Positions 4,285-55,570 of a stretch of 64,000 bases of DNA are shown in pieces. The translations under genes were made by a program, and so were the position numbers. Numbering within the stretch: the stretch's first letter is position 1; each line of letters opens with the position of its first letter. Below the pieces are notes generated by a model. That model saw only the letters and a list, made by a program, of their open reading frames with translations. It ran no database searches and was not told the origin of the DNA. This DNA is from Centroscyllium fabricii (Eukaryota), in NCBI GenBank assembly GCA_051313645.2, contig JBNRSN020000001.1, positions 125,116,001 to 125,180,000 of the forward strand, given 5' to 3'.

Positions 4285-4420
4285 TTGCAGTGGTAGCACT
4301 CCCAACTCTGAGTCAGAAAGTTGTGGGTTCATGCCCCACTCCAGAGATTTGAGCACAAAATCTAGGCTGACACTTCAGTGCTGCCCTGTTGGAGGTGCCG
4401 TCTTTTGGATGAGACGTCTA
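4285..4420 (+). mobile_element. SacSINE1/Deu-SINE 5' (tRNA-derived) fragment
   Basis: GGTAGCACTC...CTGAGTCAGAA...GTGGGTTCA...CCCACTCCAGAG matches the 5' end of the copy at 50531. Confidence 0.65.
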
Positions 4421-4424
4421 ACAT

Positions 4425-5310
4425 CTTCCAGTTCTGATGAAAGGTCATCGACCTGAAACGTTTACTTTGGGCCAATATTTCCAATCCTTGCAGCTGGTTT
4501 TGGAGCTGGGTGTAAGCGCACCCGAGCTCCAAATCGCATTGAACAGCTGTTTCCAGCTGCTCCATGCATTTCCGAAGGTGGCCAGCGGTTGGGGCGGGGG
4601 GGGGAGGGGGGGTGGGGGGGTGGTTAGAGCTGCTGCGAGGAGGGTCACACTCGCCTGCAGTGAATTTCCGTTTTTTTTCCAAGTTTTTCATCGGGGTAAG
4701 TATGGAAGATTTTACACTTGAAAATATCAGACGTAAGCACTCGTTTTTAGCAGGTAAGTCTTTATTTTACAGAATTTAAGTATTGTTTTTACAGGTTTTT
4801 AATTTTTTTTAACTTTAAAGACAGGTAAGTATTCTTTTAGGCCAGTTAAAGACTTTACATTTTTTTTCTAAATTTTTATTTTTTCTTTAAAATAGGTAAT
4901 TTATGTTAGAGTATTGTTAAAAAAATGTGGTGTTTTTTAAATTTTAATTTTGTGTTTAGATGTGTTTTGGAAGATCTCCCTTTTCAAAAGTTACACAGAT
5001 TTCTCCGTGTAAGTTTTGAATGGAGGATTGCTTCCCTTGATTGGCTCCCTGCCGATCACGTGGTCTCGTGCGATATCTCGAATTAATTGCGCCGTTCAGT
5101 TGCACCAGCAGCTCGCACAGAGCTTTCACCAGCTGTACAACTCGGGAGTTCACAGCGTAAAATTTCAAAATGGCAAAAGTGCAGGGTAAGTGTAAATAGG
5201 AACCCTACACTCGCATGAAGGGTCCAAGGCTAATTTCTGGACCATTGTTTCTCTCTCCATATATCCTGCCTAAGCTGCTGAATGTTTCCAGCAATTTCTA
5301 TTTTTATTTC
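4425..5310 (+). mobile_element. Penelope-like element terminal fragment split by a ~775-bp MITE (4469-5243)
   Basis: TTCTGATGAAAGGTCATCGACCTGAAACGTT at 4432-4462 resumes as TGTTTCTCTCTCCA...GCTGCTGAATGTTTCCAGCA after 5243. The insert has weak TIRs GGGCCAATATTT / AATTTCTGGACC. Confidence 0.55.
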
Positions 5311-15099: not shown

Positions 15100-18000
15100 A
15101 GTCTCTCAGGAGGCTTCACATGTCTTGAGGATCCTCTGATTGATTGTCCTTGAATCTGAGTTGTTGCCTCAGATGATGTATTCTCAGCTGTGTAATCAGG
15201 TTGTTCAACAGTATCAGTCTTTCATCCTGCTGTGGCTTGTGCCATGAGAAGATCCCACTGATTTCTTCTGGCTGAATGGTGTATGATCTTGGTTGGACTT
15301 CACTAAGGACAGTTCCCTTCTGAGTCCATATGTTTGTTTTGTCTTTGAGCCTTACTTGGTCAACAGAGTGGAGTTCAGGTAGGTTTTATGTTCCTCTGTC
15401 AAAGTAGTATTTTTGCTTAACTTTCTGTTGTTCTTTCAACTTCCTCACTTTCTCCCCCTCTTATGCTTTGAGGAGGTTCTCCGGGATGGGTAGGTTTGAT
15501 CTTAGCATACATCCGATAAGGAGTTGGGCTGGTGACATACCACACTCGAGCGGCGTTGTGCGGTATACCAACATGCTCTGGTAGAAGTCAGTTCCACTGT
15601 TTTTTGCCTTGTACATCAGTCTTTTCACTGTCTGGACCAATTTTTCTACTAGTCCATTGGAGTGTGGAAAATGAGGACTTTATGTTGTGTGGACAAAGTC
15701 CCACTCTTTGGCAAAGTGTCGGAAACTTGAATTGCAAAACTGGAGTCCATTGTCTGCGAAGACCTCGCTTGCCATGCCATGTCTGGAGAAGATGGCTTTC
15801 ATACATGTTATCACAGCATCTGCAGTGGTGGTGTACAGTCTACAAACCTTTGGATACAGGGAGTAATAGTCTGTGACTACAAGATAGTCCTTCCCTTGAC
15901 ATACGAATAGGTCAGCGCCTACCTTCTGGTAAGGTCGGTCGGTGCTGGGTGTGGCTTTAATGGTTCTGCAGGATTGCTTGCTTGATATTTCCGGCATATT
16001 GTGCAGTTTGACAGCTCATTTTGTCACATCATGGTTGATTCGTGGCCAGTACATCACCTCTCGTGCTCTTTTCTTACACTTTTTGATTCCCAGATATCCT
16101 TCATGGATCCTTTTTAGTATCTCTTTTCTGAGACTCTTTGGGATAACTATTTTACTTCCTTTGCAGATGATGTCTTCGACCACTGATAGTTCCGCCCTGC
16201 AGTTCCAATACTCTGCAATGTCAGATGAGCAGTCTTGCTTCATGTTGGGCCATCCATCCAAGATGTTTTTTTCTCAGTTGTTTCAGTGTTTCATCTTTGT
16301 TTGTCTCAATCTTTATGAGCTCCATTTTTGCATCTGCTATCGGCAGTGCACTTGTGATCATGTCCACGTAGGCGTTCACGTCTTCATCCATTTTGGTGTT
16401 TGCGGGCTCCCTTGGGTCAACAGCTCCAGACAACTTGGCTGCTGTGTACATGAGCTTATCCGGAGTGTATGCAACAGTCAGTGTATAGCATTGCAGCCTG
16501 ATCATCATTCTTTGTATTCTAAGCAGACAGACATTTTGTGGCTTTTGGAACAATGCAATCAAGGTCTTATGGTCAGTCTCTACACTGATTGCTTGTCCTG
16601 ACACAAACTAGTGAAATCTTTCACAGGCCTTTGTGATGCTGAGCAGCTCCTTTTCTATTTGAGCATATCGCCTCTGTCATTGAGCACGATGCATATGCAA
16701 TAGGTTCCCAGTCATCATATTTTTGCGGAAGAACGGCAGCGAGCCCACTCTGTGATGCGTCTGATGATATCTTGATGGGTCTCACTGGGTCATAAAACCT
16801 CAGAACTGGTTCCTCTGTGAACAGTTTCTTTAGTTCGCTCCATGACTTCTCATGCTCATGATTCCACTCCCATTCTATGTTTTTTTCAGTTAGTCTTCTC
16901 AGTGGCGCCATCTTTTCTGAGAGGTTGGATATGAATTTACCCATGTAGTTGATCATTCCATTAAACCTCTGCATGTCTCTTTTGCATTGTGACCTTGGCA
17001 TATTCCCAATGGCGGACACCTTTCTGGGATCTGGTCTGATGCCCCCACTGCTAAGGATCTCTCCCACAAATGTCAGTTCTGTCACCCCGAGCTGGCATTT
17101 CTCTCTATTCAGCTTCAGGTTTGTTTTCCTTGCTGCTTCCAGCACTTTTTTCAGTCTCTCATCATGCTCATTTCACGTGGTTCCCCATGCTATGATGTCA
17201 TCCATTGAGGTATCAACTCCCTCCAGGTGCTCATAGACCAAATGGATAGTTTTGTGATGCACTTCAGGAGCTGAGGCAATGCCATATGGTAACCTTAGGA
17301 ATCTGTATCTGCCAAATGGACTATTGAACGTGGACAGTCTTGAACTTGCCTCATCCATTTTCAACTGCCAAATCCTGATGAAGCATCTAACTTGCTGAAA
17401 TACTTTGCATTTGCAAACTGTGACATGATTTCCTCATGCATTGGAAGCTTGAAGTGCTCTCTCTTTATTGCTCTGTTTAGATCTCTTGGATCCAGGCAAA
17501 TTCTGAGCTTTCCATTCTTTTTGTCCACAATGACGAGTGAACTCACCTACTCAGTTGGCTCATTCATCTTCTGCATCACGTTCCGGCTTTCCATCCTGTC
17601 CAACTCTGTCTTCAGCTGCTTTTGAAGAACAAATGGATTTTTTCTGCATGGATGTATTATCGGTGGCACACTTTTATCCACTCTGATCGTGTGTTCTCCT
17701 GGAAGGCAGCCTAGACCCTGAAATAGGTAATTGTACTATTTCATGAGTTCATCATAGACTGTTTCTCCTCTGCTTTCCACAACGAGGACTCATTTTACCA
17801 AGTTCAGTCTCTCACAGGCTATTAAGCCTAGTATGGCCTGCACATCCTTTGGCACCACGATGAATGCTAGCATGTGCTCTGTCCTTTTGTGTCACTTTGA
17901 CAATGTATTTTCCTTGCACTGGTATATCAGTACCTGAGTATCCTGTCACTTTAACTTTTATTCCATGTATCTTTGGTTTGGGTCTAACTTTCTTAAAATC

Positions 18001-19329
18001 AGTCTCTGATATCACATTAACTTGTGCTCCAGTATCCAATTTAAATGAAATGTGTATGTCATTCACTTTTAATGTCAACATCCAGTCTTTTTTCTTTTCA
18101 GACACAACGTCCACATAGAACTCCTCTATCTCCCTTTCATCTACTGCATGGATCTTGCTTTGTTGCACTTGGTTCTTACAGCAACGGGCATAATGGTTGT
18201 TTTTGTTGAAACTATTGCATGTTTTACCATATGCTGGACACTTTTTTGGTAGCTGTTGTGTATCACATTGACTACATGGCTTTCGATTGCCCCTTCCATT
18301 TTCGTTTACTGACCACGCCTCTTTTTTCACATTGGCGCTCTTTTTTTGAAACGGTTTGTGTCCGTTCTTTCTCACTGCATCCACGTTGCAGCTACTGTCA
18401 CTGAACAGCTCCTTTGCCTGCGACTTCACAGTCTCTTTAGCCCTACAGAATGCTATGGCTTTTCCCAGGTCTAGATTTTGCTCTCTTAGCAGTCTTTCCC
18501 TTAGACTATTATATGGAATACCACACACAAGTCTGTCTTTTATCAGTGAGTCTGTCAGTCCACCAAAATCACACGTTTTGCTTCTGGTTCTCAGTTCAGT
18601 CACATACTGATCAATAGTTTCTCCCATTTTCTGTACACGTGAGAAATCTGTGCCTCTCAAACATCACGTTACATAGAAACATAGAAGATAGGAGCAGGAG
18701 TCGGCTATTCGGCTCTTCCAGCCTGCTCCGCCATTCACTGAGATCATGGCTGATCATCCAAACCCAGCACCCCGCCCCTGCCCTCTCCCCATGTCCCTAT
18801 CGAGCCTACACCGACACATATCCCACCCTATCCACGTAACCCCACATATTCAATCCCCCTAACACTAAGGGTCAATTTATCATGGCCAATCAACCTAACC
18901 CGCACATCTTTGGACTGTGGGAGGAAACCGGAGCACCCGGAGGAAACCCATGCAGACACGGGGAGAATGTGCAAACTCCACACAGATAGTACCTGAGGCT
19001 GGATTTGAACCCGGGTCTCCAGAGCTGTGAGGCAACAGTGCAAACCACTATGCCACCATACCTTACGTTTAGGTATGCAGTATGCCTCAATCGGTTCCAT
19101 TATTTTATCCAGCTTCATTTTGTCTCCATCAGCAGCGAATGTGAGGTTATTATACACCTCCAGCGCTTCATTACCCATGACATGTAATAACAGACGCTTG
19201 CATTATATCACTTTTCTCGTCAGCTCTAATTGCCGCTAAATACAACTCAAAACGTTGTTTGAACCTGTTCCAATTTTCAGCCACATTACCTGTCAACTGA
19301 AGTTTTGCCGGTAGGTGTAGCCCTTCCAT
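15100..19329 (-). pseudogene. Gypsy gag-pol remnant
   Basis: Gag start MEGLHLPAKLQLTGNVAENWNRFKQRF at 19329. Zn knuckle KCPAYGKTCNS, protease KLDTGAQVN, RT LRICLDPRDLN / FSKLDASSG / SMDDII, RNaseH SSDASQSGL, integrase PYQKVGADLF / ADNGLQF. Many frameshifts. Confidence 0.9.
18671..19062 (-). mobile_element. HE1-like V-SINE inserted in Gypsy gag
   Basis: tRNA head, V-domain and CR1-type tail. ACGTT repeated on both sides. Interrupts the gag frame. Confidence 0.9.
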
Positions 19330-29273: not shown

Positions 29274-31763
29274 ATGTACCTGCATATTTTGATTTTCCTC
29301 TTACTCTGGACTGGAGCTCTGACCTTGAAGAATTTGAAATACACGATCCTGGAAGAACAAGGGCCCGGGACCGTGATCGGGAACATTGCAAAAGATGCTA
29401 GCCTGGCGACCAGTCCCGAGCAGAGGAAGCCCAACTTTCGGGTTTTGGAAAATTCCGCCCCGCATTTGCTGGACGTCGATCGGGAAAGCGGGCTGCTTTA
29501 CACCAAACAACGCATCGACCGGGAGACCGTCTGCAAACGGGCTGCCAAGTGTGTCGTCTCGCTGGAAGTGTTCGCCAACGACAAGGAGCTGTGCATGATC
29601 AAAGTGGAGATCCTGGATATCAATGATAATGCGCCCAGTTTTGCCAGCGAGCAGATCGATGTGGAAATCCCCGAGAACGCGGCTCCGGGGACGCGCATCC
29701 CGCTGACCAGCGCCCACGACCCGGACACCGGCCAGTTCGGCCTGCAGACCTACCACCTGAGCAGCCCCAACCGGCTGTTCGGCCTGGAGGTGAAGTCGCG
29801 GGGCGACGGCACCAAGTTCCCCGAGCTGGTGATCCAGAGGCCGCTGGACCGGGAGGAGCAGCCCCGCCATGTGCTGCTGGTGACGGCGCTGGACGGCGGC
29901 GACCCCCCCAAGTCGGGCGCGGTGCAGGTGAGGGTGGAGGTGGTGGACACCAACGACAACAGCCCGTCCTTCCAGGAGCCCAGCCTGACGGTGGAGCTGA
30001 CGGAGAACTCGCCGCTCGGCACCTTCCTCATCCAGGTGAACGCCAGCGACCCGGACGAGGGCAGCAACGGCGAGGTGGTCTACTCCTTCAGCCCGTACGT
30101 GGCCGACAGGATCCGCCAGCTCTTCTCCATCGAGCCCCGCTCCGGGGTGATCAGGGTCCAGGGCAACGTGGACTATGAGGAGAGCAGCATCTACGAGATC
30201 GACGTGCAGGCCAAGGACTTGGGTCCCAACTCCATCCCGGCTCACTGCAAAGTGTCGGTGCGGGTCCTCGACCTCAACGACAACGCGCCGGCCCTGAGCC
30301 TGGTGTCGGTGCAGCAGGGCTCGATCGGCGAGGCGGCGCCGCCCGGCACCGTCATCGCCCTGGTCAAAGTCACCGACCGCGACTTCGGCCGCAACGGCCA
30401 GCTGCAGTGCCGGGTGCTGGGCTCGGCGCCCTTCCGGCTGGAGGAGAACTACGACAACTTCTACACCGTGCTGACCGAGCGGCCGCTCGACCGGGAGGTG
30501 GCCGACCTGTACAACCTGACCATCGTGGCCCGGGACCAGGGCTCACCGCCGCTCAACGCCAGCCGCTCCTTCAGCGTGCGGGTGGCGGACGAGAACGACA
30601 ACCCGCCCCGCTTCACCAAGCCGGTGTACCTGCTGCAGGTGCCCGAGAACAACATCCCCGGCGAGTACCTGGGCTCGGTGCTGGCCCACGACCCCGACCT
30701 GGGCGCCAACGGCAGCGTCTCCTACTCCATCCTGCCGTCCCGGGTGGGCGATGTCTCCATCTACACCTACGTGTCGGTCAACCCGGCCAACGGCGCCATC
30801 TACGCGCTGCGATCCTTCAACCACGAGCAGACCAAGTCCTTCCAGTTCCGCGTCTTGGCCAAGGACGCGGGCACGCCGCACCAGCTGGAGAGCAACTCCA
30901 CGGTGCGGGTCAGCGTGCTGGACCTCAACGACAACGCGCCGGTCATCGTGCTGCCGGTGCTGCACAACGACACGGCCGAGATCCAGGTGCCGCGCAACGC
31001 CGGCCTGGGCTACCTGGTGGCCACCGTGCGGGCTCTGGACAGCGACTACGGCGAGAGCGGCCGCCTGTCCTACCAGATCGCCGAGGGCAACGAGCTGCAC
31101 CTCTTCGACATGGACCCGGCCAGCGGCGAGATCCGCACGGCTCAGCAGCCCCTGTGGGAGGATCTGGCCCCCGCCGCCGAGCTGGTGGTCAAGGTGTCGG
31201 ACCACGGCAAGCCCTCGCTGTCGGCCGTGGCCCGCCTGGTCATCGTGGCTTACCTGGGGGCCGGGCCCCCTCCCCAGGACGAGCAGCGGCTCAACAAGGA
31301 GCAGTCCCGCCACTGGGACCTGTCGCTGCCCCTGATCGTCACCCTCAGCTCCATCTCAGTCATCCTGCTGACCTCCATGGTCACCATCGCCGTCAAGTGC
31401 AGGAGGGAGAACAAGGAGATCAGGACCTACAACTGCCGGATCGCCGAGTACTCGCACCCCCACCTGGGCAAGAGCAGCAGCAAGAAAAAGAAAATCAACA
31501 AGAACGACATCATGTTGGTCCAGAGCGAAGTGGAGGAGAGAGATGTCATGAACGTGGTGAGCAGTCCCTCCCTGGCCTCTTCTCCCGTTTATTTCGATTA
31601 CCAGACGCGCCTGCCGCTCAGCTCCCCCCGGTCAGAAGTCATGTACCTGAAGCCCACCTCCAACAACCTCACCGTCCCCCAGGGCCATGTGGTCTGTCAC
31701 ACTTTCTCCGGACAGGGTTCAAATCCGAGCGACGTAACGTCAACGAGAATGTCACTGATTCAG
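29274..31763 (+). CDS. PCDH17: Protocadherin-17 coding exon 1 (signal peptide, 6 cadherin repeats, TM, proximal cytoplasmic tail; 830 codons)
   Basis: MYLHILIFLLLWTGALTLKNLKY..., SLEVFANDKELCMIKVEI, KSRGDGTKFPELVIQ, WDLSLPLIVTLS and KCRRENKEIRTYNCRIAEYSHP match recalled PCDH17 rather than PCDH19. Phase-0 donor CAG|GTAAAA at 31763/31764. Confidence 0.96.
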
Positions 31764-47080: not shown

Positions 47081-49495
47081 ATGTGCAAACAGTGTATGTA
47101 GAGCTCTGGCCTGGTAGGCAGAGTGTACTTTGCGGCCAGGTGTAGGTTACATTATAACTCGATCTTGCTAGCTACACTTCGCACGATCAGCTACCGAAGT
47201 CAGACAACAATGGTTTAGTAGTTTGCAGCCTTAGATTTTATCTTGTGCATTCTCGACTTCCTTCGCCCCCACCATTGCCGGGCATGCCTTCTAGGCCCTA
47301 AGCTTTAGAATTCCCTCCCTAAACCTTTCTGCTTTCTCACCTTCTTTAAGATGCTTCTTAAAATCTATCTCAACTGTCCTATGTCTCCTTTGGCTTGGTG
47401 TCAATTTTTGTCTGATGCTACTTTTGTGAAGCACCTTGGGACGTTTTACTGTGTTAATGGTGCTATATAAATGTAAGTTATTGTTGTTATGCATCTCATT
47501 AAACTTTAACTTAGTGATTTTATCTCATTAAACACGATGCAGTCCTTTCACGAACAGGTGTACTGAGAGGTGCGTATGCATACATATGTTTAGACACAGA
47601 CTGAACAGCTCCTTGATTTCAGTTGACCTTTAAATTGCAAATGTTGATGGAAGTAATGTGTGGACTGGTTTGGGAGGGGTACACTGAACAGCTTAGTACC
47701 TCAATAAATCCATCATCATCTGCTACTAAAACAGAAAAACAAATATAAAAAAATCCAAAAATAATAGATAGTCCCAATAATTGTTTGTAGTTTTGGTTTC
47801 AAAGTGATCCGAATATCTAGTCTCCTTTTGTACATTTTGGAGAACAGTAGGAAATGTGCTCATCAGGGTTAGGAATGTCAGTGCCAAGGAATGAAATAGT
47901 TCTTTTCCCATTACTTCTAGAGCATGTATATCCCAGTTCGATACAGAACAAAGTTCCCTCTACTCTGCCCCAACAATACAGCTTAACCTCAATCTCAGAA
48001 GAGTTGCCCCTACTGTAACAGCATGATTTGTTTGATTTCTCACACAAACTACCCTCAAGATTTCTCCAAGTCAATTACCAATTTAATGCAGATTCATAGG
48101 CAGTTTGTGCTTTTGGACCATGCCCACTAGGAGGTGAGTTGAGATTGCTCAGATTGGTTTCATATTGCCTCATTAAAATCAACAGAAGAAGAGACGGCTT
48201 TCATTTGATCGGTCTAGGCTTAGATTCAGGTCCAGATCTCAGGGGTGACAGTACACTGGTAATTCACTGCACCAGTCAGCCCCATTGTGCCAGTTTAAAA
48301 AATACTCTGACCGTCTTTGTTAATGTTTTTTGTATGTGCTAAATTTACTTGTGAAAACTTAAATTAAAATTAGGAGTGTTTAATACGACATTCTTTGCAG
48401 ACGCCAGTTGGCCTGTCTGTTCTGCATGTTCATGGTTTCAGCTTTCAAGTGCTTATAAGAAAGGGGGAGGGGAATTGGGTTTGCCATCAGATCCAACATT
48501 TGCAGTCTTGTGCCAAAGGAAAGATTTGCGTGCTGGAGTTTGAGAAAGATCTTTCCTTTAACTGGCTAATTGTGGTTAATCCCCAATAAAACAAATTAAA
48601 ATATTTATACCATTGCTGTATCAAACAGAGATAACAAGCTTCAAGCATCAGAATAGATTTCTGACACTTCCGAAAGAATAGAATATTGTTTTAAAGAAAA
48701 TAAACATAAACAGAGAGAACAGTAAGAAACTGCAAAAAAACTTTCAAATTTGCTTTTGTCTTTCCCTGTGTTTTTTAGGGGCGAGGTGTGTTTAGGAACA
48801 CTGATTCAGTCAGCTCAAAAATTTATTTTGTAATTTGTTTTTATTTGATGTATTTTTACAGTAAAATTGTCTGCTCAATATGTGTGTGAAATTCTTTCAG
48901 CAAACATACCATTCCCAGCAGCTCTTCAGTTTCAAACTATAACTGCATGCCTGTGTGTGCTTTCTTCATCACATTTTGATTTACTCATTGAACAATCTCC
49001 AAAAGCTTCTCCATCAATATTCATTTCAGTGGGACTTTGTTTGGACGTGGCTCACCTTTCTAATTATTTTTAATGAAATATGATCAGATGGCGAAGGTTT
49101 ACTGCATGAATGTAGCAACACACCATCAAATTATTTTGCCACTGATAATGAAAAGTGCCAGGCAGCAGCCATCTTAGTGAAATAATTTCCCAACAGCAAA
49201 CTTAAGTGGGATTTTGTTATTTCAGTAAGATGGTGGCTAATGAATATCTTTTAGTTTTGACAAGGCTACTACATCTAAACATAATAGGTCTCCACCAGAG
49301 GCAAATACTGTACACTTTTTTGACTAACATACTGCAATATATGAAAATCAGTTCTTGTAACATGCAAACCACTGTAAATTCAAGGAGCTATGTTATTTGA
49401 AACCAATTTTCTTTTGCTCTTGTAGATTTTAATGTTTCAGAGTTATTTGTGCTCATTCAGAAACATAGCATTTACAGTTTTTTTGCTGCATACTA

Positions 49496-50373
49496 CAGGT
49501 ACACAATCCTTTATCCGCAACTCCAAAAACCGAAATGCTCCAAAAACCGAAATCCCGCGTTGCGCCAAAATAACCATTTTTTTCTTAAATAAATTGAAGG
49601 AAGTGACCAGCTGCAGCAGAAAAAAATCAGAAAAAATATGTTTTTACCTTAATGCCGTGCTGTTGTTAGCTCGGCAAATGCGACCTATGTCATTGACATG
49701 TTGCTTAACCTCAATTTCATTGTTCACTGTCATTATCGACACCAAACTGGTATTCGGTCAAATTGCCTTCTCCAGTCCCTTTAAATCAACAAGCCCGTTG
49801 GTCTTCACGGGCAAATAGGGCACTTGAAAACCCTCAGTCTCAAGCATGCGGCATGAATCCAGGACGCACTTGTGTTCTGTCTGGGTTGTGATGACGTGCT
49901 TCTTTTTAGCTTTGTAAAACCTTGCAACACCCTTGATGGTGACATTGTTGGACTCTGTAGCACTGCTGGTGAAGATGATTTCTCTGTAGTCTGCTCCGAC
50001 CAGGTGAGCTGTTTGCTTTCTCACTTTCTCCACTGCTGCCTCGCTCTCCCAGCCATACGCATGCATTCTTGAATGAAGATTGCCTTAGGAATTGACCAGA
50101 TAGGGGAGCATTGTGTCCAACACTCTGGGATCCAGTTGTGTTGTAGCCTGAACGGCCGATCTCCAAAGGGCCGATCTCCCCTCTAAACGGCCGATCTCCT
50201 GCTCCAAACGGCCGATATGCCGTTCCCCGACTGCAAGCTGGGCCGTAAACATGGCAATGCGCATGCGCATGCGATCTGCGCATGCGCACTGGGGCCAACT
50301 CTAAAAACCGTATTTATCCGAAAACCGAGACCCACCCGGTCCCGAGGTTTTCGGATAAAGGGTTGTGTACCTG
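49496..50373. mobile_element. 878-bp Tc1/mariner (pogo/Tigger-like) non-autonomous TIR element carrying a host gene fragment
   Basis: 22-bp TIRs CAGGTACACAA(T/C)CCTTTATCCG (one mismatch), flanked by TA at 49494-49495 and 50374-50375. Confidence 0.88.
49664..50153 (-). pseudogene. NFS1: Intronless internal fragment of cysteine desulfurase NFS1 (two in-frame stops, no frameshift)
   Basis: [41 protein letters not shown]...[13 protein letters not shown]...[17 protein letters not shown]...AI*PNTSLVSIMTVNNEI...IGRIC. Confidence 0.93.
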
Positions 50374-50530
50374 TACACGCTTTCCTCAAAACCATAAAGA
50401 ACTGATGTAGCAGAAAATCTGTTCTTATTGAATATTCAATATTCAACCTTGTTTTGGCGATGTTAGGCTTTAATCTCTTATATTTGTGTACTGGACAAGC
50501 TGGACAGTGCCTGGCTCTCTCCATACTAAA

Positions 50531-50960
50531 GTGTCAGCCTTGGCTCAGTCGGTAGCACTCTTGCCTCTGAGTCCAGAAAATTTGTGGGTTTACGTTCCAC
50601 TCCATGAAACTTGAACACAAAGTCTAGGCTGACACTTCAGTGCAGTACTGCAGGAGAGCGCTACTGTTAGGGGTGCTGTCTTTCAGATGAGATGTTAAAC
50701 TGAGGTCTCTCAAGGAGATGTAAAAGATCCTATTTGAAGGAAAGCAGCAGACATCTCCCTGGTGTCTGGGCTAATATTTATCCCTCAATCTACATCACGA
50801 AAACAGATTATCTGCTCATTATTTAATTGCTGTTTGTGGGACCTTGTGTACAAATTGGCTGTTGCATTTCCTACATGACAACACTTCAAAAGCACATCAT
50901 TGGCTACAAAATGCTTTGGGATGTTCTGAGGTTGCGAAAGGCACTATATAAATGCAACTT
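50531..50960 (+). mobile_element. SacSINE1/Deu-SINE, near full length
   Basis: GTGTCAGCCTTGGCTCAGTCGGTAGCACTC head through the GAAAGGCACTATATAAATGCAA tail. Confidence 0.8.
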
Positions 50961-55511: not shown

Positions 55512-55570
55512 ACAGACAATTTTCCCGCAGAGCCCAATTACATGGGCAGCAGGCAGCAGTTTGTTCAAAG
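55512..55570 (+). CDS. PCDH17: PCDH17 coding exon 2 (59 bp)
   Basis: ttcacag|ACA... encodes TDNFPAEPNYMGSRQQFVQS; donor AG|gtaagt. Phase fits exons 1 and 3. Confidence 0.95.

Follow-up and report, generated by a model that had tools for sequence, protein, structure and literature searches.

Spliced NFS1 cargo in a dispersed pogo-type MITE family of the shark Centroscyllium fabricii

Transduplication by DNA transposons is already known, and several described systems come close to the element reported here. In Pseudocercospora and related fungi, a hAT transposon carries the spliced coding sequence of histone H3 (Dhillon et al. 2019, PMC6710886). As described there, the fungal and shark elements are alike in being cut-and-paste transposons with terminal inverted repeats (TIRs), in carrying spliced housekeeping cargo that was amplified, and in having dead copies alongside an intact original gene. 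In contrast to the shark case, however, the fungal elements are about 9.5 kb long, are present in hundreds of copies blurred by RIP, and contain a near full-length CDS. The shark carrier is a vertebrate pogo MITE of <1 kb, its cargo is an internal fragment, and its junctions and empty parent can be read to the base.

In animals, Tan et al. (2021, PMC8277862) described Pack-TIRs whose cargo is genomic DNA with a median junction microhomology of 2 bp. According to the text of that study, its pipeline threw out any intronless copy of a multi-exon gene, multicopy cases numbered only four, and the example has three derived copies. The shark element resembles a Pack-TIR in that host sequence lies between the two arms of one TIR element, with short microhomology, a unique parental locus, >90% identity and multiple copies with distinct target-site duplications (TSDs). 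It differs in that the cargo is spliced, with six introns missing where theirs is genomic, and in having 63 or more copies; it works like a multicopy Pack-TIR but lies outside the definition of Tan et al. Since the main animal survey removed intronless cases by design, and found four multicopy families only, elements with spliced cargo have gone uncounted. The same filter can be reversed, which makes the question posable across genomes.

Bat Helitrons also spread retrogenes, with 118 copies for four cases and 36 for TFPT (Thomas et al. 2014, PMC4224331). Here too a vertebrate DNA transposon carries intron-free copies of host mRNA to tens of places, but Helitrons are rolling-circle rather than TIR elements, and the four inserted cases, as presented there, were 5′-truncated with poly(A) and L1-type TSDs rather than internal pieces. 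The cargo itself most resembles the spliced mRNA inserts found at Cas9 breaks in mouse zygotes and ascribed to repair mediated by reverse-transcription products (Ono et al. 2015, PMC4516963). Both are internal and spliced, with both ends cut and no poly(A), and the reported mouse microhomologies are 1–5 bp. The mouse inserts are experimental single events, whereas the shark insert arose in nature, became fixed in the germ line and owes its many copies to a transposon. For the carrier, the relevant comparison is the pogo superfamily, characterized by a TA TSD, TIRs of 40 bp or less and a transposase with CENP-B_N, HTH_Tnp_Tc5 and DDE_1 domains (Gao et al. 2020, PMC7386202). The shark element shares the TA TSD and short TIR, and its presumed partner the domain set; in contrast to the autonomous members, it is non-autonomous and bears cargo.

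In a search of the openly accessible literature, neither an animal TIR family that has amplified a spliced cargo nor a paper joining NFS1, a transposon and a shark came to light. What is new is a vertebrate cut-and-paste element with spliced internal cargo in 63 or more copies. It offers a base-level record of how, in a vertebrate, mRNA can become a dispersed DNA repeat in two steps while showing none of the marks that retrocopies usually bear.

The window copy and its carrier family

The window, a stretch of 64,000 nucleotides from contig JBNRSN020000001.1, contains an 878-bp element at positions 49496–50373, bounded as in a preliminary description of this DNA by TIRs and by TA duplications at 49494–49495 and 50374–50375. 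Its arms (49494–49520 and 50349–50375; 27 nt including TA) are 93% complementary, and 21/22 and 23/25 TIR letters match when the TA is left out. The left TIR (49496–49520, plus strand) is the counterpart of the 5′ end of autonomous pogo elements, where the transposase starts, being alike at 52/57 letters with L237 and 53/58 with L245, both of which code for transposase. It is followed by a MITE arm common to the empty family (49521–49662), within which 49649–49662 represents one member, the second, of the pair of 14-bp units found on either side of the insertion site in empty copies. The spliced NFS1 cargo occupies 49663–50150 on the minus strand and represents host CDS 169–656: the end of exon 2, exons 3–6 and the first 22 nt of exon 7, with exon joins at about 50133, 50016, 49932, 49779 and 49685 when aligned to the host gene. 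A 3-bp CAA microhomology is found at the 49663 end of the cargo (minus strand). On the other side lie tandem 20–21-bp units of a sister empty MITE subfamily (50151–50222), also present in the empty copies L257, L261, L266 and L267, then the type-B MITE arm of the other end (50223–50348) and the right TIR (50349–50373, minus strand). Because the left end in the window is the transposase-start end, the cargo is antisense to the element.

The identification of the cargo as NFS1 stands, but the limits first given to it (49664–50153) do not, the host-matching part being the 488 bp above. It differs from the host NFS1 gene at 33 letters over those 488 bp. The reading frame has two stops and no indels, as previously noted; they are a TAA at 50085–50087 and a TGA at 49758–49760, both read on the minus strand. 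The earlier remark that the piece ends before the catalytic residues also held up: the cargo stops at codon 219, and the SGHK lysine, which we take to be the PLP lysine of NFS1, is host residue 251. The MITE arm directly behind the cargo (49612–49648, minus strand) contains AAG/GTAAAA, which resembles a splice donor, as well as a CAG with a pyrimidine tract, and it is conceivable from these motifs that the arm could be exonized where a copy sits in sense orientation in an intron. A SINE-like element, presumably of the shark HE1 type, starts about 150 bp to the right of the transposon (50516–50860).

The carrier belongs to a pogo-type MITE family whose empty copies number in the thousands; they are about 300–365 bp long and gave 3,878 candidates in a genome search. 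Its earlier assignment to pogo is supported by the properties expected of a non-autonomous member of this branch of the IS630-Tc1-mariner group: short TIRs, TA duplications at dispersed sites, and ends shared with elements that code for a CENP-B-type/DDE_1 transposase of the DD32D type. This partner family is about 2.3 kb long and has a 595-aa ORF with CENP-B_N, HTH_Tnp_Tc5 and DDE_1 domains and a DD32D motif; it may belong to the Tigger family within pogo. Its ends are 79–95% alike with those of the MITE over 38–80 bp. A match to the MITE end was absent from all of the best 30 DDE_1 loci; of 20 others, chosen among 150, two had it. No direct autonomous parent, from which the MITE would derive by deletion, was found among these, the matching pogo family sharing only the outer 40–80 bp. 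Judging from the shared ends, the DD32D family may have supplied transposase in trans.

Several arrangements within these families stand out. A 162-bp match in the transposase-coding relative L241 was considered as that element's own end and ruled out, as it is an empty MITE nested in the element; in a second nested arrangement, the end of a filled copy has taken in an empty member of this MITE family (L020:2400-2678). At L209:1863-3650 and L210:2181-3629, and also in L228 and L230, pogo DD32D copies stand tail to tail with C2H2 zinc-finger exons and are 95–97% alike. Three of these four have long open frames (618, 505 and 619 aa), whereas most dispersed relatives are broken; domestication or a recent segmental duplication is possible. 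Contig C967, which includes L207 and others, has several regularly spaced DDE_1 matches that share one 558-aa open frame, a repeated block with an unbroken pogo-type ORF.

Host origin of the cargo and dispersal of the copies

The cargo is a spliced copy of the host's own NFS1. In the long class of copies it comprises host CDS 45–656, 612 letters in all: exon 1 contributes its final 62 letters and exon 7 another 22, with exons 2–6 complete between them. The six corresponding host introns, 18,757 bp in total, are precisely absent; they are bounded by GT-AG and in one case GC-AG, the GC donor belonging to intron 5 (L073). Among copies that cover them, the six exon joins are spanned cleanly in 49/53, 58/60, 46/60, 55/59, 56/57 and 53/55, and alignment breaks fall at insertions or duplications, never at the joins. 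The expectation that the cargo was derived from cDNA of a multi-exon gene is thus borne out, and an intronless host NFS1, which would have undone it, is not what the genome contains.

The majority sequence of the copies differs from host NFS1 at 18 of 612 letters (12 synonymous, 6 nonsynonymous) and is 97% identical to the host mRNA. The encoded majority protein is 98.2% identical to its host counterpart and at most 94.5% identical to those of 15 other vertebrates. In the protein tree, called for in the preliminary description to separate host from foreign origin, host NFS1 and eight cargo copies form one clade with support of 93/85, a value below the tool's mark for strong support. An unbroken sister copy (L009) matches Pfam Aminotran_5 and human NFS1 structures, and its best protein matches are shark cysteine desulfurases at 89–92%. 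An origin from a parasite or bacterium was ruled out, as the best matches are sharks and the host gene is nearest. Within the host gene, the intron after exon 8 (L074, about 4395–4460) has a piece resembling the right end of a related pogo family, probably by chance given the size of that family.

Cargo-bearing copies are present at no fewer than 63 loci in the 7.2-Gb genome. A DNA search with the element gave 5,045 candidates, the best 40 of which were scored, and further cargo loci came from the 3′-junction pattern (34 matches) and from a search with host exon 1 (best 40 of 54 candidates scored). Sixty-one distinct loci on 29 contigs were examined, and two (L263 and L269) were added later. 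Both TIRs were found in 45 of the 61, and 37 of these 45 are flanked by TA on both sides. When 104 flanks were compared, both were shared in full only by L006 and L012, other matches being partial and to other repeats. A pattern spanning the exon 5/6 join, which is independent of the arms, gave 53 matches, and since 52 of them were already among the 61 loci there are probably few members beyond the 63.

The preliminary description had proposed that multiple copies with the same TIR-NFS1 junctions and different TA flanks would reveal mobilization, and that a solitary NFS1-bearing copy would argue against it; the 63 loci correspond to the former. The common 5′ junction occurs in 48 of the 61 loci and the common 3′ junction in 56, and diagnostic letters are common to all three copy classes wherever they are covered, which points to a single capture. 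One capture was followed by amplification with new target duplications, and the TA sites to which the copies have dispersed are spread over at least 29 contigs. Contigs from an independent sequencing run (X3) bridge both the 5′ junction (1342–1443 across 1386) and the 3′ junction (1425–2026 across 1991), which shows that the chimera was not created by the assembly. Together with the 29 contigs, the distinct flanks and the single duplicate pair, these rule out an assembly artefact or segmental duplication. Annotation of this genome calls for corresponding care, as dozens of intronless "NFS1 paralogues" in it are transposon cargo.

The insertion site and the route of capture

The cargo occupies a single position in the MITE, between two 14-bp units, and its insertion removed none of the MITE's own letters. 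The empty site has two units in 1,638 matches and one unit in 215, and two-unit empty sites occur in several subfamilies, including the one with tandem units. The two units differ from one another in filled copies exactly as they do in the empty copies L180–L187, and the empty copy L185 agrees with the long cargo class both in arm type and in its pair of units. Full-length cargo is flanked on both sides by CAAC, four letters that fit either side. At the 3′ junction, CAA is also host sequence, giving 3 bp of microhomology; three or more letters would be shared by chance at about 5% of random junctions. At the 5′ junction microhomology with the present host is 0 bp, and perhaps 1 bp with the ancestral letter, a contig of organism C aligning one base further there. 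No poly(A) is present at the cargo end, which falls inside exon 7. The cargo therefore shows the intron loss of a processed pseudogene but not its poly(A) 3′ end or long target duplication, the duplication here being at most 4 bp. The statement in the preliminary description that poly(A) and an own TSD are lacking was right as to poly(A); as to the TSD, it is true only of a long one.

An internal spliced piece with both ends cut and no poly(A) is what inserts made during break repair look like. We think it probable that a break inside the MITE was repaired with reverse-transcribed NFS1 mRNA, leaving the ends of the element in place, and that the product was then moved by pogo transposase. The break would have arisen inside a resident two-unit MITE, and a reverse transcriptase would have made cDNA of the spliced NFS1 mRNA. 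One break end may have annealed to the transcript at the shared CAA while the other side was end-joined; the weakness of the microhomology at the two junctions tells against this reading. The filled MITE, which kept both ends, could then have been spread by pogo transposase acting in trans, plausibly from the DD32D family. Later arm swaps with sister subfamilies might have come about through template switching in gap repair after excision. As the empty parent, host donor, junctions and arm swaps all survive, the family would constitute a clean natural record of germ-line cDNA break repair.

The closest rival to break repair has the cDNA made in place, by internally primed LINE-type target-primed reverse transcription at a nick in the resident MITE, with a 1–4-bp duplication and subsequent mobilization. 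This would be compatible with CAAC on both sides of the cargo and with the retention of all MITE letters, but for three of the four duplicated letters the host sequence alone is explanation enough. A precedent exists in bat Helitrons, where retroposed mRNA was inserted into DNA transposons and then spread, but the bat insertions as described had poly(A) and TSDs (PMC4224331). In the shark cargo poly(A) is absent and the 3′ end lies inside exon 7. The L1 target consensus is A-rich, and the insertion site is not such a target. The LINE-type route is hard to tell from break repair by sequence, as the outcome is the same and only the enzymatic step differs; we regard it as unlikely, though a serious contender.

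Less credible again is a route in which an ordinary full-length or 5′-truncated retrocopy came first, either free or in a MITE where the 14-bp unit would be its TSD, with capture or trimming at the DNA level following before the source was lost. One-unit empty sites do exist, some with the long-class arm type, the final AA of the cargo could be a remnant of poly(A), and the arm swaps show that template switching at the DNA level takes place in this MITE family. Two-unit empty sites are about eight times commoner, however, and the units of filled copies carry the same differences as the pre-existing pair in empty copies, on which grounds a TSD role of the 14-bp unit was rejected as the main reading. 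No trace of such a retrocopy was found in searches of the best-scoring candidates. The NFS1 3′ half gave 7 matches, all at the one multi-exon host locus (14/14 candidates scored), and no cargo copy was seen to continue past the 3′ break. No extension upstream of the 5′ break, into the rest of exon 1, was seen in 39 non-host matches (best 40 of 54 candidates scored). None of the 61 copies lacks both arms, and 7 have one arm only. The suggestion in the preliminary description that the element may have picked up an earlier retrocopy accordingly found no support in these searches, and we consider it improbable.

Recombination, decay and genomic setting

The arm tree is poorly resolved, with some unit labels mis-set, and only two broad groupings were used: the long type-A class groups with type-A empty copies, and the long type-B and short classes with other empties. 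The short class comprises 7 of the 61 copies plus L263 and includes the window copy. In this class the tandem-unit arm of an empty sister subfamily is joined directly to exon 2, and by this structure the window copy reads as a secondary recombinant that took an arm from a different subfamily and retains just 488 bp of cargo. Its tandem units would mark a second template switch, which replaced exon 1 and most of exon 2. Deletion with filler DNA was dropped as an account of the short class, the same tandem units being present in empty copies. We infer that the arms were swapped when the template was switched in the course of gap repair. L118, L129, L131, L133 and L171, one of which belongs to the short class, have in common an internal tandem duplication of about 70 bp (CDS about 326–397), which hints at further recombination between copies.

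A few observations bear on other species and on the age of the capture. Among the table rows listed, the host sides with organism C rather than with the cargo at two sites, no more than a hint that the capture predates the split between the two. Run X12, from organism D and presumed to be DNA, contains low-depth divergent contigs, one of them across the exon 2/3 join, a weak hint of copies in another species. An absolute date was abandoned: with the rate of 7e-10 per generation given for the epaulette shark (PMC10587355), a divergence of 2.2% corresponds to about 3e7 generations, which is implausibly many.

The copies decay neutrally. They are 2.6% (1.2–4.5%) from the majority sequence, and 245 of their 918 changes are synonymous, where the observed spectrum would lead one to expect 264 (95% range 239–289). 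Stops number 24, against 29 (19–39) expected. The cargo covers codons 15–219 only, with no start codon, PLP lysine or catalytic cysteine, and so does not resemble a functional cysteine desulfurase. An upstream Met is present in 15 of 40 long copies, in differing arm frames, and no in-frame start is conserved. Most likely the cargo is a passenger and the element does nothing for the host.

A more ambitious proposal combines direct repair of a MITE break on the NFS1 transcript with a regulatory output: 63 or more copies, with their cargo antisense behind the start end of the transposon and within introns of host genes, would supply antisense transcripts or small RNAs that target the mRNA of the essential gene NFS1. 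If true, spliced-cargo TIR elements would be an overlooked vertebrate route from mRNA to dispersed trans-regulators; we rate the combination as very unlikely. In four sequencing runs from organisms C, E, F and G, three of them presumed to be RNA, each NFS1 contig continues beyond the cargo, and none of those listed bridges a MITE junction, a result that concerns those organisms and carries no weight for expression in this shark. Retention of the copies for a truncated protein or a regulatory RNA against NFS1 deserves still less credence, for while 15 of the 61 have cargo free of stops and frameshifts, the majority sequence is close to the host mRNA, and the cargo is antisense to the transposase-start end and, in the window, within a PCDH17 intron as well, the substitutions and stops match neutral expectation, and the cargo has neither a conserved start nor the catalytic half.

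In the window, the element lies in intron 1 of a PCDH17-like host gene (31764–55511, plus strand), with its cargo antisense to the gene. A long cadherin exon at 29274–31763 precedes it, for which protocadherin-17 is closest per aligned length, and two exons follow at 55512–55570 and about 55688. The exons were assigned from splice signals and phase, together with the known structure of the PCDH17 gene. These positions agree with the placement in PCDH17 intron 1 originally proposed. Upstream of the protocadherin, a 283-aa frame on the minus strand (17812–18663) resembles the gag/protease part of an LTR retroelement.
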